Shown here piece after piece: positions 2,570 to 16,117 of a stretch of DNA of 64,000 nucleotides. Source of the stretch: Escherichia coli (GTDB lineage Bacteria; Pseudomonadota; Gammaproteobacteria; Enterobacterales; Enterobacteriaceae); the NCBI RefSeq assembly GCF_016903815.1, contig NZ_CP069973.1. The stretch is one strand, 5' to 3'. The notes under the pieces were generated by a model. The model did not search any database and was not told the origin of the DNA. It saw only the letters and a program-made list of their open reading frames with translations. Both the position numbers and the translations under genes were made by a program. Every line of letters begins with the position of its first letter. Position 1 is the stretch's first letter.

Positions 2570-2601
2570 GTTCTAATTTTGCTCACTATAGGTACTAAAT
2601 T

Positions 2602-3516
2602 ATGTACTCAATAAAAAAAGTAACCATGCTCTTGGGGTGCCTCGCCCTCACCTGCTCGATCGCATTTCAGGCGAGTGCAACTGAAAAATTCAAGGTCATT
2701 ACAACATTTACCATCATCGCAGATATGGCCAAAAACGTGGCTGGAGATGCTGCAGAAGTCTCATCCATAACCAAGCCCGGTGCAGAAATTCATGAGTATC
2801 AGCCTACCCCTGGCGATATTAAACGTGCGCAGGAGGCACAACTGATTCTCGCCAATGGTATGAATCTGGAATTGTGGTTCCAACGCTTTTACCAGCATCT
2901 TAATGGGGTTCCAGAAGTAATTGTCTCTTCGGGTGTGACGCCAGTAGGGATCACTGAAGGCCCCTATGAGGGCAAACCTAACCCCCATGCCTGGATGTCG
3001 CCAGATAATGCTCTGATTTACGTCGATAATATTCGTGATGCGTTGATAAAATACGATCCGGCAAATGCACAAACCTACCAACGTAATGCCGATACTTATA
3101 AAGCCAAGATTACCCAAACCCTTGCCCCCCTGCGTAAGCAGATTGCTGAACTCCCTGAGAATCAGCGATGGATGGTCACCAGTGAAGGGGCTTTTTCTTA
3201 TCTCGCACGCGATTTGGGGCTAAAAGAGCTTTATCTGTGGCCGATTAATGCCGATCAACAAGGCACGCCGCAGCAGGTACGTAAGGTTGTTGATATGGTG
3301 AAGAAAAATCATATCCCGGCAGTCTTTAGCGAGAGTACGATTTCCGATAAACCAGCGCGTCAGGTTGCGCGTGAAACCGGCGCGCACTACGGCGGTGTAC
3401 TCTATGTCGATTCCCTGAGCACAGAAAACGGCCCGGTACCTACGTATATCGACCTTCTGAAGGTTACTACCAGTACGCTGGTACAGGGAATTAAAGCCGG
3501 GAAAAGGGAGAAATAA
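2602..3516 (+). CDS. sitA: Mn/Fe ABC transporter periplasmic substrate-binding protein SitA
   Basis: 304-aa ORF with signal peptide and cluster A-1 metal-binding protein features; first gene of a 4-gene operon with overlapping stops and starts. Confidence 0.85.
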
Positions 3517-4343
3517 TGATGCAATCTGCGGGCATTGTCGTTAATGATGTTACTGTCACCTGGCGTAACGGGCACACAGCACTGCGCGATGCATCCTTCA
3601 CAGTACCAAGTGGATCTATTGCCGCTCTGGTTGGGGTAAACGGTTCCGGAAAATCGACGTTGTTTAAAGCGATTATGGGATTTGTGCGTCTGACCAGCGG
3701 AAAGATATCTGTTCTGGGTATTCCCACGCGACAGGCGCTACAGAAAAACCTGGTTGCCTACGTCCCTCAGTCAGAAGAGGTTGACTGGTCATTTCCTGTA
3801 CTAGTGGAAGATGTGGTGATGATGGGCCGCTATGGGCACATGGGTATGTTGCGTATAACCAAAAAGAGGGATCGTCAGATTGTCACCGATGCGCTGGAAC
3901 GTGTCGATATGGTGGATTTTCGCCATCGACAAATCGGCGAGCTTTCCGGTGGACAAAAGAAACGCGTCTTTCTGGCGAGAGCGATTGCACAGCAGGGTGA
4001 TGTGATCCTGCTGGATGAACCTTTTACCGGCGTTGATGTGAAAACCGAAGCGAAAATCATCAGCCTGTTGAGGGAGTTACGCGCGGAAGGCAAGACGATG
4101 CTTGTCTCAACGCACAATCTCGGCTCAGTCACGACATTTTGCGATTATACGGTCATGGTCAAAGGCACCGTCCTGGCAAGCGGGCCGACAGACACCACTT
4201 TTACAGCCGAGAACCTGGAGCTGGCTTTTAGCGGCGTACTGCGCCATGTCACACTTAACGCCTCGGAAGAAAGCATTATTACTGACGATGAACACCCTTT
4301 TGTGGCACATCGACCGTCAGCGGTGCAGAGGGAAGCAAGATGA
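3516..4343 (+). CDS. sitB: Mn/Fe ABC transporter ATP-binding protein SitB
   Basis: Walker [13 protein letters not shown] signature LSGGQKKR, Walker B ILLDEP. Confidence 0.85.
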
Positions 4344-5197
4344 ACGTGCTACTGGAACCCTTCAGCTATGAATATATGCTCAATGCGATGTGGGTCTCGG
4401 CGATGGTCGGCGGTCTCTGCGCTTTCCTGTCATGCTATCTGATGCTAAAAGGCTGGTCGCTGATTGGCGATGCGCTGTCGCACTCTATTGTCCCGGGTGT
4501 TGCGGGGGCATATATGCTGGGGCTTCCGTTTTCTCTGGGAGCCTTCTTTTCCGGCGGACTGGCAGCGGGCAGCATGCTGTTTCTTAACCAACGCACTCGC
4601 TTAAAAGAAGATGCCATCATCGGCCTGATCTTCTCCTCCTTTTTTGGCCTGGGGCTGTTTATGGTGTCATTGAACCCGACATCCGTGAACATTCAGACCA
4701 TCGTCCTAGGCAATATTCTGGCAATCGATCCGGCGGATATCCTGCAACTCACTATCATTGGCATTCTCTCGATCATCGTGCTTTTTTTCAAATGGAAAGA
4801 TCTTATGGTGACCTTTTTCGACGAGAATCACGCCCGTGCTATTGGATTGCATCCGGGCAGATTAAAAATCCTCTTCTTCACCCTGCTGTCGGTTTCGACC
4901 GTTGCGGCGCTGCAAACGGTTGGTGCCTTTCTGGTGATCTGTCTGGTGGTGACTCCCGGTGCAACAGCATGGTTGTTAACCGATCGTTTTCCCCGCCTGC
5001 TCATAATTGCTGTAACTATTGGCAGTGTAACCAGTTTCCTCGGCGCGTGGGTCAGTTACTTTCTGGACGGCGCGACAGGTGGAATCATCGTGGTGGCGCA
5101 GACACTGCTGTTTCTTTTAGCATTTGTATTTGCGCCCACCCATGGGCTTTTGGCAAATCGTCGGCGTGCGCATAAAGCGCTGGAGGATCGCTCATGA
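4340..5197 (+). CDS. sitC: Mn/Fe ABC transporter permease SitC
   Basis: 285-aa polytopic membrane protein, ABC-3 permease-like; 4-nt overlap with sitB. Confidence 0.85.
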
Positions 5198-6051
5198 TGG
5201 CATTATTACTGGAGCCACTGCAGTTCACCTTTATGAGTCACGCACTGCTGATTTCACTGGTAGTTTCCATACCCTGTGCGCTGCTGTCGGTCTTTCTGGT
5301 CCTGAAAGGTTGGGCACTGATGGGTGACGCGATGAGTCATGCGGTTTTTCCTGGCATCGTGCTTGCCTGGATTCTGGGGTTACCTCTGGCTACAGGGGCA
5401 TTTATCGCCGGAGTATTCTGCGCGGTGGCGACGGGATACCTGAAAGACAACAGCCGAATCAAGCAAGATACAGTGATGGGGATTGTTTTTTCTGGCATGT
5501 TTGCCGCAGGTCTGATCTTGTATATTGCAGTCAAACCAGACATACATCTTGACCATATTCTTTTCGGCGACATGCTCGGGGTAACCATCGGCGATATAAT
5601 CCAGACGATGATTATTGCCGGGCTGGTTACACTTGTTATTAGCGTAAAATGGCGGGATTTTTTGCTGTTCAGCTTTGATTATCAACAGGCGCAGGTAAGC
5701 GGTTTGCATACGCGATGGCTGCATTATGGGCTGCTGTGCATGGTTTCCCTGACCATTGTGGCGACGCTGAAAGCAGTAGGTATCATTCTCTCCATTTCTC
5801 TGCTCATTGCGCCTGGCGCCATTGCGGTACTCCTGACACAACGCTTTCATATTGCACTCCTACTGGCGACTGGCATATCGGTAATAGTCTCAATGACTGG
5901 TGTTTGGCTGTCCTTTTTTATCGACAGCGCACCAGCTCCGACGATTGTCGTCTTATTCGCGGTTGTGTTCATCATGACGTTTACCGTTATCAGTTTCAAC
6001 GCACGCACAAAGGGAAACGCTCATAGACAGGATCTGTTATCCCCCAATTAG
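5194..6051 (+). CDS. sitD: Mn/Fe ABC transporter permease SitD
   Basis: 285-aa membrane protein paralogous to SitC; 4-nt overlap with sitC. Confidence 0.85.
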   Translation: MMALLLEPLQFTFMSHALLISLVVSIPCALLSVFLVLKGWALMGDAMSHAVFPGIVLAWILGLPLATGAFIAGVFCAVATGYLKDNSRIKQDTVMGIVFSGMFAAGLILYIAVKPDIHLDHILFGDMLGVTIGDIIQTMIIAGLVTLVISVKWRDFLLFSFDYQQAQVSGLHTRWLHYGLLCMVSLTIVATLKAVGIILSISLLIAPGAIAVLLTQRFHIALLLATGISVIVSMTGVWLSFFIDSAPAPTIVVLFAVVFIMTFTVISFNARTKGNAHRQDLLSPN

Positions 6052-6523
6052 CACAACATCCGAGGGCAGCATTGTCCGCTAGTACACTGCAGTCCAGAAA
6101 GTCATGGGCGGACGTTGGGAGGAGGCGCTAATCCTTTCATACAAAAAATATGTAAAATCAATAACGGCTGTAAATCATTCAATACTCGCACTATCGGAAG
6201 TTCACCAGCCAGCCGCAGCACGTTCTTGCATACGACGTGTCTGCGGTTTCAACTTCACCAGTCCACCAATCACGATGGACAGTGCCAAGACAGCACTAGC
6301 AAAAACAGGAAATTAGCAGTCTCAGCAGAACACCGACCAGACGGTGAAGAAACAAAAAAGGATACGCAAAGGGGCCGCAGTTCCCGATTGATAAAAAAGC
6401 CAGCTTATGCGCTTTTTTTTCATGTATTATTAAGTATTGGTTAGCGTCTTTTTAATCAGAACTTTAAAGACAAGCCATTTGTAAGAAAACCGACAGATTC
6501 GGTTGACAAGCAGGAGTAATACT

Positions 6524-7318
6524 TTGGACATAAGAAAAGATTTGGAATCAGTAGCCCAATATATAAGTAGACTGTTATCGATAGGGTACGAATTTAGCCG
6601 TTTTGATAAAGACTGGGTCCATTTAAAAAATGAAGAGGATTTTCGTTTTATTTCAAGAATACCATTTGCAACACGGAATAAAGTGGAAGCAGTATATGCG
6701 GAAGGCAGAGATATGGCACTTTATATGTCTGATGAGTTACTATCCATTAATAGTGATTTCAGTAAATTTCCAACGTTGACAGCTATTATCGAAAGATTCA
6801 AGGACACTTGGGTTTATGGTAATTATGATTCGGAAGTGCCAAATATAGCTAAAAAAACATGCGAAGAAAATGCAGTTCAGCTTTGGTCTGTAGAACAGAT
6901 GTGTTCCTTATTCAAAAAGCAAGAACAACTATTAGCAGCAGTACGTATCACATTGCAGATGCTACAAGATAGTGACCTATACAAGATGGAGAATGGTTTA
7001 CCTCTTATGAAACAAGAAGCTAATATTCATGTCAGTGGAATTTCCGGTTCTAGTATCAATATACATTCTTCAGGTGCTACGGCAACTACTACGACAAATT
7101 ATAATGAGCCCACAATATTTAATGAAATGATTGAGGCAATAAAATCGAAAAACTTTGATGGCGCGACAGAATCACACCTTATAGATAATGTACAGGCACT
7201 GGCAGCCAGTCACCAAAGCGGCTGTTTTAAAGAAGCATATAAGGACTTTATTAATAATGTATCTGCACACATTACAGTATTTACTCCATTTCTTGCTGGC
7301 ATATCATCTTTACTATAA
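6524..7318 (+). CDS. Hypothetical protein (AT-rich cargo gene)
   Basis: ORF in clearly AT-rich DNA; probable TTG start at 6524 preceded by AGGAG, the track start at 6503 is also TTG; followed by hairpin gtgcccta-cca-tagggcac; no family recognised. Confidence 0.45.
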   Translation: MDIRKDLESVAQYISRLLSIGYEFSRFDKDWVHLKNEEDFRFISRIPFATRNKVEAVYAEGRDMALYMSDELLSINSDFSKFPTLTAIIERFKDTWVYGNYDSEVPNIAKKTCEENAVQLWSVEQMCSLFKKQEQLLAAVRITLQMLQDSDLYKMENGLPLMKQEANIHVSGISGSSINIHSSGATATTTTNYNEPTIFNEMIEAIKSKNFDGATESHLIDNVQALAASHQSGCFKEAYKDFINNVSAHITVFTPFLAGISSLL

Positions 7319-7863
7319 AATAAGTGACAGATACATTAATACATAACGAAAAATCTTTTTAGCTACTCATTCATATCAATAGTGCCCTACCATAGGGCAC
7401 ATTATTCGTGGAACTCGTTTATGACAAAAGAATTTTGATGGTCTGCCTGATGCAACAGATATAATTCTGGGAGTGTTGAGTAAGAGTATTCACCGGCGCT
7501 CAACACAAATGCCAGCAAGCACGAGAAAGAGCAGGTAAGCCTGAGTGTTCAGGAAATGTTTGAAAAGGCTAATATGTGGCTGGTTTCAGATTAAACGCCT
7601 TGAACCGTCATATTACTTAAGTACAATCCGCCTAGACTAGCAATCATTCAATAGTAGCACTATCGAGCGCTCGCCAGTCGAGCGCAATCATGCTCCTTGC
7701 ATACGGCGTGCAGCATATCACAAAACGATTACGCCATGACGGACTGCAGGCTACTCAATATCTGGCTCGATTAGCGTATTGGCATGATTTAACAGACCCC
7801 GGCGCTTATTCCCAGCAACCTGAAGCGGCACCTCTTCCTGTGTTGCGTTTACAACTCCCTTTT

Positions 7864-8172
7864 TCACCCACGATTAACCAACAGCCAGACCAGCAGACAA
7901 GCCACCACCGGCACAGAAAAATCCATCAGGCTTGCCACATCCCACACGCGCGGATCAAAACCACCCCACCACGGCATATTCATACGCTTGCCATGCCCGA
8001 ACATTTCAATCCAGCGATATTCTGCCTGGGTATGTTCACGAGCAATGAAGAACGTACAACCGGCTATCGCCCCGTAAGCCCAGTTTCCGGTAAAAAGACC
8101 AACCAGTACCTGCGCAGCCACAGCACAAAGTGCATGAAGGAAAGGTGTTATATCCATTTTCATCCTACCCAA
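7864..8172 (-). CDS. Small hydrophobic protein of unknown function
   Basis: 102-aa ORF with hydrophobic segments, on the same strand and directly downstream of the tail fiber genes; preferred over the overlapping plus-strand ORF 7690..8175. Confidence 0.4.
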   Translation of the reverse strand: MGRMKMDITPFLHALCAVAAQVLVGLFTGNWAYGAIAGCTFFIAREHTQAEYRWIEMFGHGKRMNMPWWGGFDPRVWDVASLMDFSVPVVACLLVWLLVNRG

Positions 8173-8199
8173 TAAAACGGGGCGCTCGGCCCCTTAATA

Positions 8200-9240
8200 T
8201 TATTTAGACGCAAGCGTCGCCTCAATTGCAGATAATCTTTGTTTTAATTCTGCATTTTCTTCTTCCAGTGCTGTTATTCTGTCGTCTGACTCTCTGGCTA
8301 CCTGAACAAGCAAGCCAGTAACACCAGAATAATCTACTGTGTAATAACGTTCACCTTCTTCACCTTCCGATCCGCTTGCACCGTCCTGATATTTCATTGC
8401 GGAACCTACAACTTCTGGGATTGCTTCCAGAGCTTCCTGTGCAATGACACCAGCATAGGGCATACCGTTTTCTTTAAGCGTGTATGTATAGCCGTTCATT
8501 TTACGGATGCGGTCGGTTGCATTATCGATCACCTGAATGTTGTCTTTCAGATCCCGGTCGGAATGCTGGTTAAATGCGGTGGCATGACATGCACCATTAA
8601 CGCTTAACATATAGGTGTTATCGGTATTTTTCTGCGCATAGAACATATAAGCGCCACCATCAACACCGACTTCATAAACAACAGGACGGCTGGAGTTGCC
8701 CCACAATTGAGCAGTAACACCAGCATAAGCGGTTCCCTGTGTGTTTAATGTCATGGTTGACCCATGATTGGCATATTTGATCTGTAATGTGTCGGTGTAA
8801 TCAAATTTAATAAGCGCGTTACTTCCACGCTTGCTGTATGACATAAGGCAGTTACCCATTTTGAGGTATCCGCTGTCACCGGGAAAAATCATCGTACCGC
8901 CATAAAGGTTGGTAAAGTCCCAGCAAATGTTTGTCCCGTTATCGTTCAGGTTAAGGCGCGCCATTGCGTTACCTGGACTGTCTATCCATTTTTTGAGGTA
9001 TAGTTCGCAATACGCATCCTCAACACCTGCCGTCCTGTGAGTTGAGCGGAGTTTTCTCCCAAATATAGCTCCGCTAGTTGGCAATACCTGCTGATACCAT
9101 GAAGCAGACCAGTCACCAACGATTTCATCTTTGCTGTCTACATATAATTTTGTTGCGTAGCTTCCTTGATCGTTTTTTAATTTGCTAACGTCGGATTTTA
9201 GCGTTTTGATGTCATCAGGAATTACTGTCGATGTAGCCAT
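8200..9240 (-). CDS. Tail fiber / receptor-binding protein with C-terminal intramolecular chaperone-like domain
   Basis: 346-aa ORF; C-terminus (NGYTYTLKENGMPYAGVIAQE...YYTVDYSGVTGLLVQ...ITALEEENAELKQRL) resembles the autoproteolytic chaperone domain of tail fibers and tailspikes. Confidence 0.55.
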   Translation of the reverse strand: MATSTVIPDDIKTLKSDVSKLKNDQGSYATKLYVDSKDEIVGDWSASWYQQVLPTSGAIFGRKLRSTHRTAGVEDAYCELYLKKWIDSPGNAMARLNLNDNGTNICWDFTNLYGGTMIFPGDSGYLKMGNCLMSYSKRGSNALIKFDYTDTLQIKYANHGSTMTLNTQGTAYAGVTAQLWGNSSRPVVYEVGVDGGAYMFYAQKNTDNTYMLSVNGACHATAFNQHSDRDLKDNIQVIDNATDRIRKMNGYTYTLKENGMPYAGVIAQEALEAIPEVVGSAMKYQDGASGSEGEEGERYYTVDYSGVTGLLVQVARESDDRITALEEENAELKQRLSAIEATLASK

Positions 9241-9249
9241 TTTTCTTCC

Positions 9250-9531
9250 TCACATCCAGCCACGAAGTTGATGCTCAACAGCAACCACGTATTCATCGAA
9301 TAATGACGATATTTGCGAATCATTAATGATGCGCACGTTTACAAAATATCCGTCTTCCTTAACACATACCGGTTCGCCATCTTCAGTCAGTTCTCCGGTT
9401 TCTTTGTACACGTTACCTATCACGTCAATAAGAATATCATCCTGCATCGACTCGTCATCATAATAGCCAATACTCTCCATAAAGGCCGAAAAGTCGGCCC
9501 TGTCGGCAAATTTGAGTGTTAAATCTTTCAT
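9250..9531 (-). CDS. Hypothetical acidic phage protein (possible tail fiber accessory)
   Basis: 93-aa acidic ORF between the two fiber genes; start overlaps the stop of the upstream stf-like gene. Confidence 0.4.
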   Translation of the reverse strand: MKDLTLKFADRADFSAFMESIGYYDDESMQDDILIDVIGNVYKETGELTEDGEPVCVKEDGYFVNVRIINDSQISSLFDEYVVAVEHQLRGWM

Positions 9532-11912
9532 TAGATTGACTCCCCCACCTGAGCATCAGTCAATGCCTTGTGCCATATTCTGAAATTCCTGACATGACCA
9601 AATAAATGACGTAACCCGGCTGTAGTCTGGCCTCCAATACGGATAATTGCGGTGTTCTGAATACAGGACCATGTGGTTTTTGTTTCGCTGGATATATGCC
9701 CGTTACTTACTGAGCACGTAGACTGCTCTGACTTTACACGCATCCCCATAACCATTTTTTCAAGCGATGCGTTTTCGTTTACCCGTCTGTTAGCTCCTCC
9801 AATATCGCAATAAGGAAATCCGTCGTAATCTGTTGAACGACCGAAGCCAAGAATAATAGCCGCTCCGGTTTGATGACCGCCGGTATCAAAAACACGTGGC
9901 GCTGCATTTGGCGTTTTATACCAGTTCTTATGTACCTCACAAAGAACCGTAAAAGGAAGATTATAAAGATTATTCTTAATTGGAACTGTAACTATATCGC
10001 TTGCGCGGGTCGCCGCCGTCGCTCCTGATATAATAAAAGATGATACACAAGGCCCATCTTCTACTTGTGGGGTGGCCAGATAAATATAGTCACCAGATAC
10101 GGTTGCCCCGCTCTGCTTAGGAGAATACTGTATCTGAGAGCCTATTTTTAACTCCCCATCAATTGCCTGAATTGTTGCCTCTGCAAAAATCCATCCGGTA
10201 GCTTCGTCCTTTCTGACTCTCGCTGTAATCCTTGAGGCAGCACCGCCTGTCATATTAATTTCAAGCGTTTGTGTATCAATATACGCATCACCAAGAAAAG
10301 TTGTTGCGCTACCGTCATATTTATCAAACCGGATACGCAACCTTACCTGCAGTTCTGTTTTAAAACGACATGAGGTTGTCACGTGTTTATTATCGCCTGA
10401 GACATCAACTGACTTTGTTGCAGCAATTGATGCCATATTAATGGCTGAGGTTTGCCCAATCAGAGAATCGTTGCAGACAAACTTTCCATAGGTAAAACCA
10501 AAATTATCCGTCCCTGTTTCGGGCACATCCATATTTGACGATCGCCCCCAACTGGCAGGGCTTTCCGAATTGAGCATGTAGTTTGTTCTTTGCCCCTCAA
10601 TAAGCAGGCCATCACGTTCAAATCGTGGCTCGTCAATGGCAGCCTCTGTCAGCACACCAGATTTGTTAATATAGGTTGCTTTCGATGCACGTTTAAACTT
10701 AACAACCTTGTCGCCAGGCATCGTTATTTCATCATCACCAATAACAATTTTTTTATATGATGGCGAAAAGCCCGTAATCATATCCAGCGAATCGTTAAAT
10801 GGTATCCACACATCAGGCAGCGGCTGTAAGACATATTTATACGGCTCCGCAGCCTGGCTTGCGTACTCTCTGGCTGCATCTTCGCTTGCTTTAGCTGCCG
10901 TCTGGCTTGCTGCCGATGCTTTCGCTGAGTTCGCAGCCGCTGTTTCGCTCACCTTTGCGTTGGTTTCACTGGTTTTTGCTGCTTTTTGACTGTTAGCTGA
11001 TGCAGTGGCAGAAGCAGCCGCCGCGCTTGCAGAACTGGCTGCGGCACTCTCGCTTTGGGCCGCTGCATCCTGACTGCTTTTCGCCGCAGTTTCACTGGCT
11101 TTGGCATTCGTTTCGCTGGTCTTCGCTGCCGTCTGGCTGGACTTTGCGTTAGTTTCACTCGTCTTCGCAGCTTTCTGGCTGTTAGCCGCAGCAGTTGCTG
11201 ATCCAGCTGCTGAAGTCGCAGAACCGGCTGCCGCGCTCTCGCTTTCAGCTGCTGCAGCCTGGCTGTTTTTTGCCGCAGTTTCACTGGCTTTGGCATTCGT
11301 TTCGCTGGTTTTCGCTGCCGTCTGGCTGGACTTTGCGTTGGTTTCGCTCGTCTTTGCGGCTGTCTCACTGTTTTTCGCGTTGGTTTCTGATTTTTTGGCT
11401 GCTGTCGCAGAGTTTGCCGATGCAGTCTTTGAGGTCGCTGCCGCCTGTGCACTATTAGCTGCATTCGTTTCTGAGGTTTTCGCCGCGTTCTTCGATGATG
11501 CCGCTGCAGTTTCGGATTTCTTTGCCGCCGCTGCGCTCTGAGAGGCGGCTTCGGCGTTGCGTGCCACTTCTTCCACCATTGCCTCAAAACGACGCAATGC
11601 CTCCGGCATGACATCCTCTTCCGTCATGGCACCGAGAAAATCATTCAGCGTACCTGGTCTGGAGCCTTCATAGACGGTAATGGTCCCGGCATGTGAAGGC
11701 GGAAAACCTTCAACCAGCAGGATGACGCTGTACTGGCCATGCTCAACATCCATGCTGTAACGCCCGGCTTCATCCGGATTTTCAGAGGCCACCGTGTTCA
11801 CCAGTACCGTGGTGCTGTTACGCTTTGCCTTCAGTTGAATAGTGCAGTTCTGTATTGGTTTTCCCGCACAATCTTTCAGCACACCTGAGATTTTTACTGC
11901 TGCCATATCCAC
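9531..11912 (-). CDS. stf: Side tail fiber protein (lambda Stf-like N-terminus, repetitive central region)
   Basis: 793-aa ORF; N-terminus MDMAAVKISGVLKDCAGKPIQNCTIQLKAK... like lambdoid Stf; central Ala/Ser/Thr-rich degenerate repeats (AAKTSETNAKSS...). Confidence 0.8.
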   Translation of the reverse strand: MDMAAVKISGVLKDCAGKPIQNCTIQLKAKRNSTTVLVNTVASENPDEAGRYSMDVEHGQYSVILLVEGFPPSHAGTITVYEGSRPGTLNDFLGAMTEEDVMPEALRRFEAMVEEVARNAEAASQSAAAAKKSETAAASSKNAAKTSETNAANSAQAAATSKTASANSATAAKKSETNAKNSETAAKTSETNAKSSQTAAKTSETNAKASETAAKNSQAAAAESESAAAGSATSAAGSATAAANSQKAAKTSETNAKSSQTAAKTSETNAKASETAAKSSQDAAAQSESAAASSASAAAASATASANSQKAAKTSETNAKVSETAAANSAKASAASQTAAKASEDAAREYASQAAEPYKYVLQPLPDVWIPFNDSLDMITGFSPSYKKIVIGDDEITMPGDKVVKFKRASKATYINKSGVLTEAAIDEPRFERDGLLIEGQRTNYMLNSESPASWGRSSNMDVPETGTDNFGFTYGKFVCNDSLIGQTSAINMASIAATKSVDVSGDNKHVTTSCRFKTELQVRLRIRFDKYDGSATTFLGDAYIDTQTLEINMTGGAASRITARVRKDEATGWIFAEATIQAIDGELKIGSQIQYSPKQSGATVSGDYIYLATPQVEDGPCVSSFIISGATAATRASDIVTVPIKNNLYNLPFTVLCEVHKNWYKTPNAAPRVFDTGGHQTGAAIILGFGRSTDYDGFPYCDIGGANRRVNENASLEKMVMGMRVKSEQSTCSVSNGHISSETKTTWSCIQNTAIIRIGGQTTAGLRHLFGHVRNFRIWHKALTDAQVGESI
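10850..11560. repeat. Degenerate tandem coding repeats inside stf
   Basis: Repeated gcagcc/gctgcc-rich units encoding AAKTSETNAK-type repeats; they generate spurious ORFs on the opposite strand. Confidence 0.6.
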
Positions 11913-11970
11913 TCCACAAAAAAGCCCGCCTGAACCGGCGGGCTGTCATAACACTGTGTTACCTGGCTAA

Positions 11971-12570
11971 TCAGAATTTATAACCGACACCCACGATGAA
12001 ACCGTCAGTGCGCCAGTCACCACTGCCGGAGCCTTCATAAGCAATATCAATGGCCACGGATTCGGTCGGGTTAAACTGCACGCCAGCCCCCCACGCCAGA
12101 GACGTGTTGCTGTGGCGACCGTCATCACTTCCGGTCAGCACATCGTGCGTTTTCCCCTTGCTGTCAGTTACGCGGAGATAATCCCCGGAAAAAGTTGAAA
12201 CACGGCTGTAAGCCACACCTGCCATCGCATAAGCACTGAACCATTCATTCACGCGTACAGACGGCCCCGCCATCATGCTGAACCAGCGGTTACGCACTGA
12301 ATCTTCATGCCAGCGGGTATCGCTGTAATGCGTTTTTTGCTCATCTTTGGCATTGGCATAACTGAATGACGTCACCAGCCCCAGCGTGTCCGTAAATTCA
12401 TAACGGTATTTCACGTTAATGCCCTTCAGGTCATCGTTGCCGGGCATATCAGTATGGGTCTGAAGATACCCGGCGCTTAGTGTGGACTGATGCTCTGCTG
12501 CGCTCGCTGGCGTACCAGCGGCGACCAGCCAGACTACTGTGGACAGAATAACAGCACATAATTTACGCAT
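11971..12570 (-). CDS. lom: Outer membrane protein Lom (Ail/Lom family)
   Basis: 199-aa ORF with signal peptide, beta-barrel pattern and C-terminal ...GVGYKF; position after J as in lambda. Confidence 0.85.
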   Translation of the reverse strand: MRKLCAVILSTVVWLVAAGTPASAAEHQSTLSAGYLQTHTDMPGNDDLKGINVKYRYEFTDTLGLVTSFSYANAKDEQKTHYSDTRWHEDSVRNRWFSMMAGPSVRVNEWFSAYAMAGVAYSRVSTFSGDYLRVTDSKGKTHDVLTGSDDGRHSNTSLAWGAGVQFNPTESVAIDIAYEGSGSGDWRTDGFIVGVGYKF

Positions 12571-12637
12571 AATTACCTCTCGCTTTTCTGCAATAAAAAA
12601 GGCGCCATTTCTGGCGCCCGTATCTGGGTTATAAAAT

Positions 12638-15600
12638 TCAGCTAATCGTGATGCCTGCAGTGGCTTTCTTCATCACAACAACCAGCAAATCGCTGATACT
12701 TGCTGTGGGATACCAGCCATTTACCCACCATGCTGATACAGAAAACTCCAGTGTCATTACGCCACTGCCTGCAGGCATATCAATAACACCCGTGTAAATC
12801 AGAGTATTATCCAGAGCCGTTCGGTTATAAATTTCAGCCCCGTTTTTCTTCACTATCAGGCGGCATGACGAATAAGTATCGCTATTCTCCCGTTCATGTC
12901 TGGCACCGCTGAAAGCCACCGCTGGAATAACAATTTGCCGGTCAAACGGCTGATCGTCATAAACCCTGACGGTAATGGTCCCTGATGGCCACCGCTCCGG
13001 TGCACGGGAGTCCCGGGGGAAAGCTTTGCCCACTGTTTTAACGAGATCGCCTTCAATCTGGTTCGCGGACAGTTTTCCCAGAACCCGACAGTTCTCGTTA
13101 ATCGTGACGTTGTTGAGCGTCCCGGAGTTCGCATTCACGCTACCGCTGATATCGGCATTTTTCGCCGTCAGTCGCCCGTCCGGTGTCAGGGAAAATGCCG
13201 GAGGATTACCGCCGCTGGTAATGGTGGGAGCCGTCAGATATTTCAGGAACACTTCATTCATGAATATCTGATCGCCCTGACCAACAAACATCGGCTTTGT
13301 GTTGCCATTCGCAGGATTAATCATCGCAATCCTGTCCGCCGCCAGCAGCACCTGACTCTGCATGCCGTCGGGGGTGTTCTCAATACCGGCACCGATACCC
13401 GCAATATAAAGGCGTCCGTCCTGCATCTGCTGCAGCTTCACTGCCCACATGCTGTTCAGGTTATTATTTGTATCAACCTGAACCTTCTGTATCTGCTGGA
13501 TCGCTGCACTCTGGTCTTCCAGTTTCTTATTGACGGTCTGCGTGATTTCATTGCTGACATCCGTAATGGACGTCCTGATTTCAGCCAGGTCAGGCGCAAG
13601 CTGACCGTTATCAATCTGCGTCCACAGCTCCTGAGCCAGATGGGTTTTCCCTATCTCGCCTTTGAAAAAATCCAGATAGCCGGATGCATCATCACTCGGC
13701 TGACCAACAGCCTCCACGAATGCCGATTTGCCAACGGTGTTCACACTGCGAACGTAAAAATAATAATCATGGCCCGGTTTGATATTGATACTGGCGGCTA
13801 TCCAGTACAGCCCCGTGCCAAGATAGCTGGCTGTGGTTTCAACCTGCCTGATATCGGTAATCCGCTTTTCCGAGAACCAGAACTCAAACTGTACCGTCGG
13901 GTCATAAACGGCAAGATGCGGCGTGGCGGTTATCTGAAAATACCCCGGCGTCAGCTCAATCCGCGACGGTGCTACCGGTGCGGCAATCCGGAACGATACC
14001 GACGCCGGATCGCCCTGCTGTCCCCACGCATTTACCGCCCGGACTGTCAGCGTGTACCGCCCCAGCGCCAGTTGCGTGAAGCGGTATGTGGTTTCCGTCG
14101 TCCGGGCCGTGCTGACCAGCCGCTCACTGCCGTCATCCGCTGCCACGGTCAGGCGAAGCAGGAAGCTCACGCCCTTCACCACCTTCGGCGTGTCCCAGCG
14201 CGCCAGCACCTGATATTCCCCGCTGTCTGCGGTGACTTCGGCGGTCAGGTGCTGCACCGCTGGCGGCGTGACACCATTCACCGTGCCGCTCTGGTCGCCG
14301 TCAAAGTGCGCCCCGTTATCCACGATGGCTTCTTTTTCCGGTACATGCTGCACGGCAGTGATGGCATACGTGCCGTCATCGTTCTCACGGATACTCACAC
14401 AGCGGAACAGGCGCTGGCGCAGCGTCGGCAGCTTCAGCCCCCACACACTGTATTCTGCAACGCCGTCAGGAACCCGGTTCACTTTCACCTTAAGTCCGTC
14501 GGTGACGGACTGAACCTCCACGCTGACCGGATTACCACTTCCGTCAACCAGGCTTATCAGCGTGGTACCGGAGGATGGCAGCGTGATTTCACGGTCGAGC
14601 GTCAGCGTCCGGGTCTGGCTGTTCACCGCCAGCACGCGACCACCGGTGCTGATACCGGCATAGTCATCATCACAGATTTCAATGACATCGCCCGGTACAT
14701 GGCGAAGCCCTTCGGCACCCACGCTGAAGTCCACGGTCTGCGTTTCCAGCAGTTCCGTTTTAATCAGCCACAGCCCGGCGCGGTGCGCCTGCCCCCGGCT
14801 GGTACAGCCAAAGGCATCCATCTTCGTGACGTTACGACCGTAACGGAGAATGGCCTGCGTATCTTCAACAAGCTCTGTCGCCGTCTCCCAGCCGTTATCC
14901 GGGTCAATCCAGTTCACCTCAACGGCATTATGGCGGTCCTTCAGGGCGCTGAAGCTGTAGCGGAACGGCGCGCCATCATCCGGCATCACCACATTACTGT
15001 GGTTATAGGTCCACACCTTATCCGACGGTCGGTCCTGCACGAACGTCAGCGTCTGCCCGTTCCATACCAGCATACAGCGCATCGCCGAACAGAAATCACT
15101 GAGCACATCCCACGCCTTGCGCTGTGTGGTCAGGTACGCATTACAGGTGATGCGCGGCTCCGTGCCGCCAAAGCCGTCCGGCACTGACTGGTCGCAGTAC
15201 TGGCCGATGACATACAGCGCCCATTTGTCCACATCCGCCGCACCAAGACGTTTCCCCATGCCGTAGCGTGGATGGGTCAGCATATCCCACAGACACCAGG
15301 CCATGTTATTGCTGTATGCTGGCTTAAACGTTCCGTCCCAGATACCGCTGTATTGCCGAGTCTGCGGGTTATAGTTCGATGGCACCTGCAGAATGCGCCC
15401 GCGAAGATGATAATTACGGCTCACCTGCTGGCTGCCGAACTGTTCCGAGTCCACCTGCACGCCGACCAGTGCCGTGTTCGGGTAGCACTGTTTCACATCG
15501 ATGATTTCAGTGTATGACGACCAGAGCGTTTTGTTCTGCAGCTGGTCTGTGGTGCTGTCCGGCGTCATCCTGCGCATCCGGATATTAAACGGGCGCGGCG

Positions 15601-16117
15601 GCAGGTTATCCACCACAACCGAGGCCAGATACTGTGAAGTGGTTTTACCCTTAATGGTGATGTCTTTTTCCGTCACCCAGCCACCGTTACGTTGTATCTG
15701 AACCAGCAGGCGGACTTCCGATGGATTCCTGTCCCCCTTTGAGGTGGTTTCCACCAGTGCCTGCACGCCGAAAGTAAAACGCAGACGGTCAATGTTTGCC
15801 GACGTGATGGTCCGGGTTATCGGCGTGTCATATTTCACTTCTGTACCGAGCACCGTCTCGGAGCCGGAGGATTCAAATCCCTCCGGCGGTGTCTGCTCCT
15901 GCTCACCGGCCCGGAACACCACCGTGACGCCGGATATATTGGTATTCCCCTCACTGTCCAGCACCGGCGTACTGTTCAGCAGCACGCTTTTTAATCCATC
16001 CACCGGACCTTCAACCGGCCCTTCGCTGATGGCATCGATCACACTCAGCAGCTGCGTGGACTTCAGGTTGTCCTTCGCTTCGCGCGGGGTATGCCCCTTA
16101 CTGCTGCCTTTACCCAT
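12638..16117 (-). CDS. J: Tail tip host specificity protein J
   Basis: 1159-aa ORF collinear with lambda gpJ, following I. Confidence 0.9.

Follow-up and report, generated by a model that had tools for sequence, protein, structure and literature searches.

A probable branched side-tail-fibre cassette of three genes in place of the lambda stf C-terminus and tfa in an Escherichia coli prophage

Side tail fibres help decide which E. coli strains a temperate phage adsorbs to. Branched lateral fibres made of two proteins have been established by genetics for phage DT57C (PMC4728585), and in DT57C and DT571/2 the two proteins, LtfA and LtfB, each bring their own receptor specificity, for different O-antigens (PMC4728585, PMC10713586). 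For the T5-like phage IrisVonRoten (Bas32), Humolli et al. 2025 presented an AlphaFold-Multimer model in which Gp24 is attached to the proximal fibre Gp22 (PMC11990801). The galectin-like C-terminal domain of Gp22 protrudes from that fibre as a possible extra receptor-binding domain, while the role of the 92-aa protein of this phage is not treated in the same paper (PMC11990801). The head-spike fibre protein of RcGTA, a domain of which recurs below, binds capsular polysaccharide (PMC10218006). The Eligo papers on lambda STF engineering and the paper on the Gifsy-1 Stf do not treat the module described here.

We analysed a fibre locus within a window of 64,000 nucleotides from E. coli (NCBI RefSeq assembly GCF_016903815.1, contig NZ_CP069973.1). 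Our main reading, to which we assign a probability of roughly 0.62, is that the locus carries a three-gene side-tail-fibre cassette in place of the lambda stf C-terminus and tfa, comprising a lectin-headed Stf, an accessory protein (orf93) and a branch fibre (orf346). The trio belongs to an already known kind of fibre locus, and its biology is expected rather than surprising. It is likely that the cassette, intact but ordinary and common to many E. coli phages, sets host range.

The three fibre genes are all intact and tightly packed, downstream of J and lom (Table 1). As the first-pass annotation had stated, the open reading frames are called at 9531-11912 (793 codons from a GTG), 9250-9531 (93 aa) and 8200-9240 (346 aa) on the minus strand. 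Judging from the sequence context, the true start of stf is probably the ATG at 11906 rather than the GTG at 11912; this ATG is preceded by a GGAG box, and its product begins with MAAVKISG, as in lambda and phage 2G7b. Its place in the late operon, immediately behind J and lom, is that expected for a lambda-type Stf. The start of orf93 and the stop of stf share 1 nt (TAATG), and orf346 begins 9 nt past the orf93 stop with GAGGAAG in front. The terminator-like hairpin upstream of stf is equivalent in position to a terminator annotated upstream of the stf of phage 21. At the other end of the trio, the predicted 97-aa membrane protein is over 90% identical across the IMG/VR loci and is a conserved neighbour in lambdoid prophages only; it was not found after the module in T1-like, 9g-like or T5-like phages. 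Because it is missing from these non-lambdoid modules and lies beyond the terminator-like hairpin, we rejected it as a fibre part, and it is probably a separate moron outside the fibre.

Table 1. Features of the fibre locus and its neighbours (positions in the window)
Feature	Position	Strand	Basis or remark
J	12638-16117	-	neighbour gene, upstream of lom
lom	11971-12570	-	between J and stf
Terminator-like hairpin	11923..11944	-	between lom and stf
stf (side tail fibre)	9531..11906	-	791 aa from ATG; ribosome-binding site; PF08400 E 3e-65; full-length phrog_1419 match
Stf N-terminal tail-attachment domain (about aa 1-132), lambda-type	11511..11906	-	PF08400 residues 5-134
Ala/Ser/Thr-rich heptad-repeat shaft	10851..11558	-	DNA repeats in multiples of 21 nt
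Stf neck, conserved (aa 355-440, 793-aa numbering; QPLPDVWIPFNDSLDM...)	10593..10850	-	allele and phage comparisons
Stf hypervariable head (aa 441-760), two beta-sandwich lectin-like domains	9633..10592	-	
Stf conserved C-terminal tail (GQTTAGLRHLFGHVRNFRIWHKALTDAQVGESI), LamG-type closing strand	9534..9632	-	alleles and alignment
orf93, acidic 93-aa alpha/beta protein	9250..9531	-	candidate fibre assembly or accessory protein
orf346, short second fibre with predicted self-cleaving C-terminal chaperone	8200..9240	-	Peptidase_S74; phrog_4563 full-length match
orf346 conserved N-terminal peptide (MATSTVIPDDIKTLK...), putative docking segment	9145..9240	-	sequence conservation
orf346 S74 intramolecular chaperone domain, aa 227-346	8203..8562	-	profile match and motif
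orf346 predicted cleavage/catalytic motif S227-D-R-D-L-K232	8545-8562	-	Ser-Lys dyad (S-D-x-x-x-K)
Terminator-like GC hairpin	8179..8193	-	directly after orf346; end mark of fibre trio
97-aa predicted membrane protein	7864..8157	-	phrog_1443; hydropathy; phage 21 annotation

The N-terminus of Stf is indeed lambda-like, matching the prophage tail fibre N-terminal family PF08400 (E-value 3.1e-65) as well as the solved N-terminal fragment of lambda Stf (PDB 9e7m, E-value 1e-47). The shaft behind it is composed of 37% Ala, 19% Ser and 11% Thr, and its best periods at the protein level are 63, 14 and 7 residues. At the DNA level, Tandem Repeats Finder returned a 189-bp unit present 2.2 times (10953-11372, 83% matches, score 595) with sub-periods of 42 and 21 bp, and a second search found repeat families between 10873 and 11491 whose spacing is a multiple of 21 nt. 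The shaft, which also weakly matches the T5 L-shaped fibre (8hqz) and N-terminal regions of phage depolymerases, is probably a trimeric coiled coil. The repeats pointed out in the first-pass annotation are thus present, but they are not what separates this fibre from that of lambda, because lambda has a homologous Ala/Ser heptad shaft: lambda orf-401 is 58% identical to Stf over residues 5-331, which span the N-terminal domain and the shaft. The comparison of repeat copy number that had been called for rules it out as a major variable, since the shaft is of equal length in 54 of the 59 distinct Stf proteins from IMG/VR loci. The remaining proteins deviate by +63, -14, -41, -49 and -105 aa, and protein databases also contain Stf variants of 685-757 aa; repeat-length variation is therefore real, yet secondary to replacement of the head.

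Compared to lambda, Stf differs in its C-terminal 440 aa, which consist of a conserved neck and a hypervariable lectin-like head. BLASTP found no similarity between Stf and lambda orf-314, so that Stf has no orf-314-like C-terminal half, and no counterpart of lambda Tfa was found either, with no Caudo_TAP match in Pfam and no BLASTP similarity between orf93 and Tfa. The first-pass annotation was therefore right in expecting a receptor-binding part unlike that of lambda and no lambda-type Tfa after Stf, but it missed both the part that is truly replaced, namely these 440 aa, and the position of orf93 as the constant partner of the head.

The neck has a mean pairwise identity of 70-83% among 10 divergent alleles and is 80-98% identical in T1-like, T5-like and Queuovirinae phages; it is poorly modelled in a monomer AF2 model (pLDDT below 50) and is presumably trimeric. 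The C-terminal tail averages 62-70% identity among alleles, with invariant columns in the alignment. Between these two, the head has a LamG/pentraxin/CBM40 fold, with the beta-sandwich jelly-roll of Concanavalin-A-like lectins and LamG domains, although its second sandwich is only moderate in reliability in the monomer AF2 model. In addition, Stf residues 437-637 match the GTA head-spike-fibre domain NF048003 with 50.5 bits, against a curated cutoff of 36. On the basis of fold and variability, aa 441-760 are likely to be the receptor-binding domain, and the ligand would most likely be a surface glycan (O-antigen, LPS core or capsule). The lectin fold is used by some enzymes too, and the fold alone is therefore no proof of binding.

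We surveyed the alleles of the cassette in 80 IMG/VR loci. At least 10 alleles of Stf aa 441-760 occur, with 38-100% identity, while conservation holds for orf93 (91-100%), the opening 32 aa of the second gene and, within Stf, the neck and the C-terminal tail. The second gene occurs in two forms, one of 346 aa and one of about 234 aa, each with a C-terminus of chaperone type; head alleles and second-gene forms assort freely.

The chaperone-like C-terminus ascribed to orf346 was borne out by a domain search, which gave Peptidase_S74 (PF13884) at residues 227-278 with an E-value of 1.5e-13. Like the Stf N-terminal matches and the repeats, this lies well outside what chance would produce. Profile searches also matched orf346 to the chaperone domain of S16 gp37, the knob of T4 gp34 and the ICA domain of MYRF. 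S227 and K232 are conserved in at least 90% of 17 homologs, and the S227 motif aligns with SSDRRIKKDI of S16 gp37. Ahead of the chaperone domain lies a variable knob-like tip homologous to long-fibre tips (phrog_6578, phrog_5668, T4 gp34). The N-terminal peptide has invariant residues M1, T5, I7, D10, I11 and L14, and is 66-72% identical to that of the alternative 234-aa form and 57-74% identical to the N-termini of second fibres in six further phage lineages. No tail-attachment domain was found in orf346 using Pfam and PHROGs. As in branched two-protein fibres, the fibre genes are adjacent and the second combines the lack of an attachment domain with a conserved N-terminal segment; the locus is moreover homologous to a described member of this kind, that of IrisVonRoten. 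The suspicion that orf346 might be a fragment of a longer disrupted gene is refuted by its cluster at 98% identity, whose 2132 member sequences are all 346 aa, and by its own ribosome-binding site; it is also present in the isolated phages 2G7b, Tritos, HannyBb, PhiR63_1 and ESCO3. The form of about 234 aa would keep a predicted mature part of only some 105 aa in which no binding domain is evident, and this would suit a structural or chaperone function alone just as well as receptor binding.

orf93 is acidic, as described before, with a pI of 4.05 and 21 D+E against 7 K+R. It had no match in Pfam, NCBIfam or PADLOC, PHROGs gave only "unknown function", and no sequence or fold similarity was found to the known tail-fibre assembly families (Tfa/Caudo_TAP, T4 gp38, gp57A). 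Querying the literature with RefSeq protein and PHROG accession numbers yielded no publication. Homologs are nevertheless widespread, occurring in 183 phage genomes, and the gene is present in 984 of 5426 complete E. coli genomes (about 18%). In the lambdoid, P2-like, T1-like, Queuovirinae, T5-like and rV5-like genomes inspected, the orf93 homolog overlaps the stop codon of the fibre that carries neck and head. It also follows the fibre where there is no S74 gene, in phage 21 (which has no second fibre gene), a contig with a LamG fibre (L086), a P2-like prophage and the rV5-like CarlMeissner; in the last of these, the fibre is 1479 aa long and has this head at its end, with 45% identity. These arrangements indicate that orf93 follows the fibre head and not the S74 gene. 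Heads 84-95% identical to the Stf head here pair with orf93 homologs that are just 44-53% identical; orf93 tracks the phage lineage rather than the head allele. By gene linkage, orf93 is the constant partner of the neck-plus-lectin-head fibre. More tentatively, and at slightly less than even odds, it may represent a new accessory class unrelated to Tfa, gp38, gp57A and intramolecular chaperones, and the partner, as assembly factor or bound cap, required by a lectin-headed terminus that moves among at least six phage groups of different morphotypes; lambdoids with the cassette would then have branched fibres with two independently exchangeable receptor-binding elements.

We propose that the lambda-type N-terminal domain of Stf would dock on the tail tip, with the Ala/Ser heptad shaft extending outward to the conserved neck, which would bear the hypervariable double beta-sandwich head. 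orf93, translationally coupled to stf, would serve as a dedicated accessory of the neck-plus-head module, most likely as an assembly chaperone or bound cap, acting on the conserved fibre parts and not on the variable head. orf346 would form a separate short homotrimeric fibre, the C-terminal S74 domain of which drives trimer folding and then presumably cuts itself off at Ser227 by means of the Ser-Lys dyad. The mature protein would then be 226 aa long, and its knob-like tip would act as a second receptor-binding element that can be exchanged. Through its N-terminal peptide, orf346 may dock on Stf, probably at the neck, resulting in a branched fibre with two receptor-binding elements. Against this proposal stand the short mature part of the 234-aa form and the lack of a second fibre gene in phage 21.

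Other readings of the same genes were considered. The gene for orf93 lies between both fibre genes and is 84-100% identical within lambdoids while the flanking receptor-binding parts vary, which could suggest a physical adaptor, or hinge, between Stf and the second fibre rather than a chaperone for the assembly of Stf; the RefSeq name of the IrisVonRoten homolog is "tail fiber protein", and one sentence of PMC11990801 has the distal fibre connecting to Gp23. We consider this unlikely, as orf93 is retained without a second fibre gene (phage 21, L086, the P2-like prophage and rV5-like phages). Furthermore, a docking surface should be about as conserved as the peptide, yet across lineages orf93 falls to 40-55%, against 57-74% for the second-fibre N-terminal motif and 80-98% for the Stf neck. 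It is quite unlikely that orf346 is a trans-acting folding chaperone for Stf and not a virion fibre. Stf has no chaperone domain of its own, Tfa is absent, little more than a coiled coil remains as the mature part of the 234-aa form, and the BASEL annotation of the homologs in VogelGryff, KarlJaspers and PeterMerian reads "putative lateral tail fiber chaperone", although this probably merely echoes the Pfam name "Chaperone of endosialidase". All characterised S74 domains, however, act in cis (endoNF, T5 pb1, GA-1 gp12; cited in PMC4728585), and the variable knob-type tip before the S74 domain resembles a receptor-binding element. The Stf head, moreover, needs no S74 gene, because phage 21, the P2-like prophage and the rV5-like phage carry the same head without one.

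Attachment of the second fibre to the tail tip alone, giving two separate side-fibre sets, is suggested by weak cryo-EM density for DT57C LtfB near the tail tip (PMC10713586), but appears very unlikely here: phages from different families (lambdoid, T1-like, Queuovirinae and T5-like) share the N-terminal peptide of orf346, only the fibre neck and orf93 are seen beside it in every such genome, and orf346 is without a tail-attachment domain. Finally, the module might be decaying in the prophage, with the fibre no longer made, given that PGAP splits stf into an N-terminal pseudogene piece ("partial, missing C-terminus") and a separate 416-aa CDS and that the neighbouring dinI-like gene is frameshifted. 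This is highly improbable, since stf reads through 791 codons without interruption and is colinear with its 791-aa counterpart in the isolated phage 2G7b (98% nucleotide identity), and orf93 and orf346 are full length; the PGAP split looks like an annotation artefact of the low-complexity repeat region.

For phage engineers, the conserved joints of the cassette (the neck; the C-terminal tail with orf93; the second-fibre N-terminal peptide) represent swap points, and we suggest co-expression of orf93 when grafting this head onto lambda-based delivery particles.

Compared to known systems, the lambda-type background is clear: Stf of Ur-lambda occupies the same position after J and lom, and its N-terminal domain and Ala/Ser shaft are homologous to those of Stf here, whereas the orf-314 half and Tfa of lambda have no counterpart and lambda has one fibre protein per side fibre. 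The NF048003 domain is part of a capsid spike in RcGTA, while the Stf residues matched by its model lie at the end of a tail fibre and are followed by a second LamG-like sandwich. The S74 domains of K1F endosialidase, T5 pb1, S16 gp37 and the human MYRF ICA share the Pfam match and the S-D-x-x-x-K motif with orf346, and in the known carriers as in orf346 the domain is C-terminal and followed by a coiled-coil helix; orf346, with a predicted mature length of 226 aa, falls far short of the endosialidases and T5 pb1 in size and is encoded by a separate add-on gene. DT57C and DT571/2 likewise have two adjacent fibre genes (PMC4728585, PMC10713586). LtfB lacks a tail-attachment domain, as does orf346, and needs LtfA for incorporation; in DT57C it docks on a part of the mid-fibre with relatedness to phiEco32 gp14. 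Both systems have an S74 domain on the distal protein, but in DT57C LtfA ends in S74 as well, while the proximal fibre here has a lectin head without S74, plus the 93-aa protein. The trio Gp22-Gp23-Gp24 of IrisVonRoten has the same gene order and overlaps as the trio here. Over shaft, neck and lectin head, Gp22 and Stf share 53% identity, in an alignment mostly ungapped over neck and head, Gp23 (92 aa) is 39-40% identical to orf93, and Gp24, which begins with MVTKTVIPTDITKLK, shares the N-terminal peptide of orf346 and has a C-terminal chaperone domain. They differ in that Gp22 has a T5-type N-terminal attachment domain, where Stf has a lambda-type one, and in that Gp24 is a T-shaped protein of 574 aa with two binding domains, compared to the one small knob tip of orf346.

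We found that stf (the side tail fibre gene), orf93 (a small acidic protein) and orf346 (a second, short fibre) form a common, intact and horizontally shuffled fibre cassette. The window is E. coli chromosome. On its minus strand, a lambdoid prophage late region closes with J, lom, the three fibre genes and a membrane protein gene. Farther out come a dinI-like gene with a frameshift, an ORF of low GC content and sitDCBA. The coordinates of the fibre genes agree exactly with the first-pass annotation, although stf more likely starts at the ATG at 11906, which has a GGAG box, than at the GTG at 11912 (some residue numbers below follow the 793-aa, GTG-start numbering). The stop codon of stf and the start codon of orf93 overlap (TAATG), and orf346 begins 9 nt past orf93 with its own Shine-Dalgarno sequence. 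A terminator-like hairpin separates lom from stf, and another comes immediately 3' of orf346. Among complete E. coli genomes (n = 5426), 984 carry the orf93 gene, 511 carry orf346 at a coverage of at least 80%, and 299 hold at least 80% of the 5.4-kb stretch 7300-12700 (cassette plus flanks), which is 100% identical in many human isolates.

Features at the tail-fibre end of the prophage (window coordinates)
Feature	Coordinates	Strand	Remark
J	12638-16117	-	late region
lom	11971-12570	-	late region
stf	9531-11906	-	791 aa
orf93	9250-9531	-	93 aa
orf346	8200-9240	-	346 aa
membrane protein gene	7864-8157	-	97 aa, predicted; phrog_1443 (function-unknown family)
DinI-like gene	~7408-7594	+	frameshifted per RefSeq; just outside the fibre module
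271-aa ORF	6503-7318	+	low GC (36%); between sitD and prophage end
sitD	5194-6051		sitABCD operon
sitC	4340-5197		sitABCD operon
sitABCD	~2600-6051		iron/manganese transporter operon

RefSeq/PGAP splits the uninterrupted 791-codon stf frame (10232-12607 in locus L001) into two features, a pseudogene labelled "partial, missing C-terminus" and a separate CDS of 416 aa labelled "phage head spike fiber domain", and leaves the repeats unannotated; the split looks like an annotation artefact, and recurs in many genomes. The gene of the predicted 97-aa membrane protein comes after the fibre trio in lambdoid prophages (identity >90%) and is missing behind that trio in T1-like, 9g-like and T5-like phages; lysogenic conversion or exclusion may be its function. 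The 271-aa ORF gave no match in PHROG or NCBIfam and only a marginal one in PADLOC (PDC-M14B, E 0.0017), and could be a moron or defence candidate. The sitABCD operon adjoins the tail-fibre end of the prophage; since phage 21 carries it in the same position, behind its stf, 92-aa and membrane-protein genes, the operon here is probably prophage cargo. Neighbouring genes on the chromosome are uspF, ompN and nifJ.

The first-pass annotation held that the fibre module had been replaced relative to lambda. This is supported, with the correction that the replaced element is a lectin-type head with its 93-aa partner, and not the repeats. The N-terminus of Stf is indeed lambda-like (PF08400 at residues 5-134, E 3e-65; the solved lambda Stf N-terminal fragment, E 1e-47), and the Ala/Ser/Thr repeat region is equally evident: Tandem Repeats Finder returned a 189-bp unit present 2.2 times at 10953-11372, with sub-periods of 42 and 21 bp, a repeat search found families whose spacing is a multiple of 21 nt between 10873 and 11491, and the protein segment (37% Ala, 19% Ser) has periods of 63, 14 and 7 residues. 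These repeats had been taken as a departure from lambda, but lambda orf-401 is 58% identical to Stf over residues 5-331 and aligns across the Ala/Ser shaft; they are therefore common to both, not new. Lambda orf-314 has no resemblance to Stf anywhere, and, as the first reading had it, there is no lambda-type Tfa, orf93 showing no resemblance to Tfa. The part replaced relative to lambda is thus the last 440 Stf residues plus the accessory genes.

To delimit the exchanged part, we compared 60 distinct Stf proteins from 80 IMG/VR loci with an orf93 gene, using mean pairwise identities among ten divergent representatives. Residues 1-440, which end in a neck (355-440), are conserved (62-83%), the head (441-760) is hypervariable (17-56%), and the last 33 residues, the tail, are again conserved (62-70%). 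Residues 437-637 match the GTA head-spike-fibre domain of NCBIfam with a score over the cutoff, and an AF2 model from a 12-sequence alignment is confident over residues 444-624 (pLDDT ~90) and moderate over 649-793. The neck, probably a trimer of interdigitated chains, is where the model fails. Capsular polysaccharide is the ligand of the RcGTA head-spike fibre (PMC10218006). We infer that the Stf head serves as a receptor domain that binds glycans and is subject to diversifying exchange.

The C-terminus of orf346 had been likened to an intramolecular chaperone domain, and it matches Peptidase_S74 (E 1.5e-13). An alternative is that orf346 is a fragment of a longer, disrupted gene. This is ruled out by a cluster at 98% identity with 2132 member sequences of 346 aa and by an end-to-end match to phrog_4563, and orf346 is also carried by isolated phages (2G7b, Tritos, HannyBb and PhiR63_1) and, at ~95% nucleotide identity, by the virulent Nonagvirus ESCO3. 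The gene is therefore whole. In PHROG matches, its residues 92-343 are related to the C-terminal parts of fibres of 1200-1570 aa, which reflects shuffling of domains and not the disruption of a gene. When 17 homologs with identities as low as 39% are aligned, four parts can be told apart: an invariant N-terminal motif (M1, T5, I7, D10, I11, L14), a coiled-coil stretch with a varying heptad copy number, a variable tip, and a strongly conserved C-terminal domain opening with S227-D-R-D-L-K232. In a profile search, this alignment matches Salmonella phage S16 gp37 in its chaperone domain (E 4.8e-9), T4 gp34 in its knob repeats (8e-6) and human MYRF in its ICA domain (6e-4). Across the IMG/VR loci, the gene 3' of orf93 has two main forms, of 346 and ~234 aa, that share only their first 32 residues (66-72% identity); the shorter form also has an S74-type C-terminal sequence (SSIRYK...GLIAEEVGEIAPQFV), and second-gene forms assort freely with Stf head alleles. 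In several of these loci (L024, L034, L039, L052, L055 and L077), either the second-fibre gene is truncated, at 90, 189 or 323 aa, or the stf frame is shortened (7-191 codons upstream of the 93-aa gene). Some prophages thus show decay of the cassette, which is intact here.

The 93-aa protein is acidic, as first noted (pI 4.05), and has no match in Pfam, NCBIfam or PADLOC. Only 52 relatives, mostly of 85-125 aa, were found among 1.84 billion representative proteins. The AF2 model is a small alpha/beta fold of high confidence (pLDDT 87.5), for which a structural neighbour search returned nothing informative. Homologs occur in 183 phage genomes in total, and in every genome inspected the gene overlaps the stop codon of a fibre gene ending in the same neck and head: in lambdoids, a Queuovirinae-like contig, a LamG-fibre contig that lacks an S74 gene, a P2-like prophage (gpH-type fibre), the T1-like phages tinuso, KarlJaspers and PeterMerian, Seuratvirus VogelGryff, T5-like IrisVonRoten and rV5-like CarlMeissner (1479-aa fibre, head at 45% identity). 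Because orf93 is kept where the second fibre is missing, its primary partner is probably the head-bearing fibre. In other lineages, heads 84-95% identical to that of Stf here are paired with orf93 proteins only 44-53% identical, while within lambdoids heads at 38-100% identity go with orf93 at 91-100%. Thus orf93 and the head do not co-vary, so the contact of orf93 would have to be the conserved neck or tail. In the P2-like prophage (L087 2269-3999), the head is 95% identical to that of Stf here and is followed by a 92-aa gene and, past a ~900-bp unannotated gap, by a persisting Caudo_TAP assembly gene, an arrangement suggestive of a recent exchange of the head in which the former chaperone gene stayed in place.

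We propose that Stf trimers would dock at the tail tip, their coiled-coil shaft ending in the neck and three lectin heads that may bind a surface glycan. Translational coupling would keep orf93 production in step with Stf, and orf93 might help to fold, or cap, the neck-head region. The second fibre, orf346, would trimerise from its C-terminal chaperone domain, cut that domain off at Ser227, and attach to the Stf neck through its N-terminal peptide, so that the fibre gains another binding tip that can be exchanged on its own. The neck is favoured as the place where orf346 docks, because across six lineages it is 80-98% identical and the N-terminal peptide 57-74%, whereas orf93 drops to 40-55%.

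A literature search found no paper on the fibre module in lambdoid phages. The trio has published homologs in Gp22-Gp23-Gp24 of IrisVonRoten. Gp22 is 53% identical to Stf overall and Gp23 39-40% identical to orf93; Gp24 starts with MVTKTVIPTDITKLK and ends in a chaperone domain. The BASEL label "putative lateral tail fiber chaperone" on the S74 gene probably goes back to the name of the Pfam family. In the model of Humolli et al. (PMC11990801), Gp24 sits on the proximal fibre Gp22, with a protruding C-terminal galectin-like domain as a possible additional receptor-binding domain; the authors left the small protein Gp23 undiscussed. The principle of branched, two-protein lateral fibres has been shown genetically for DT57C (PMC4728585; PMC10713586).
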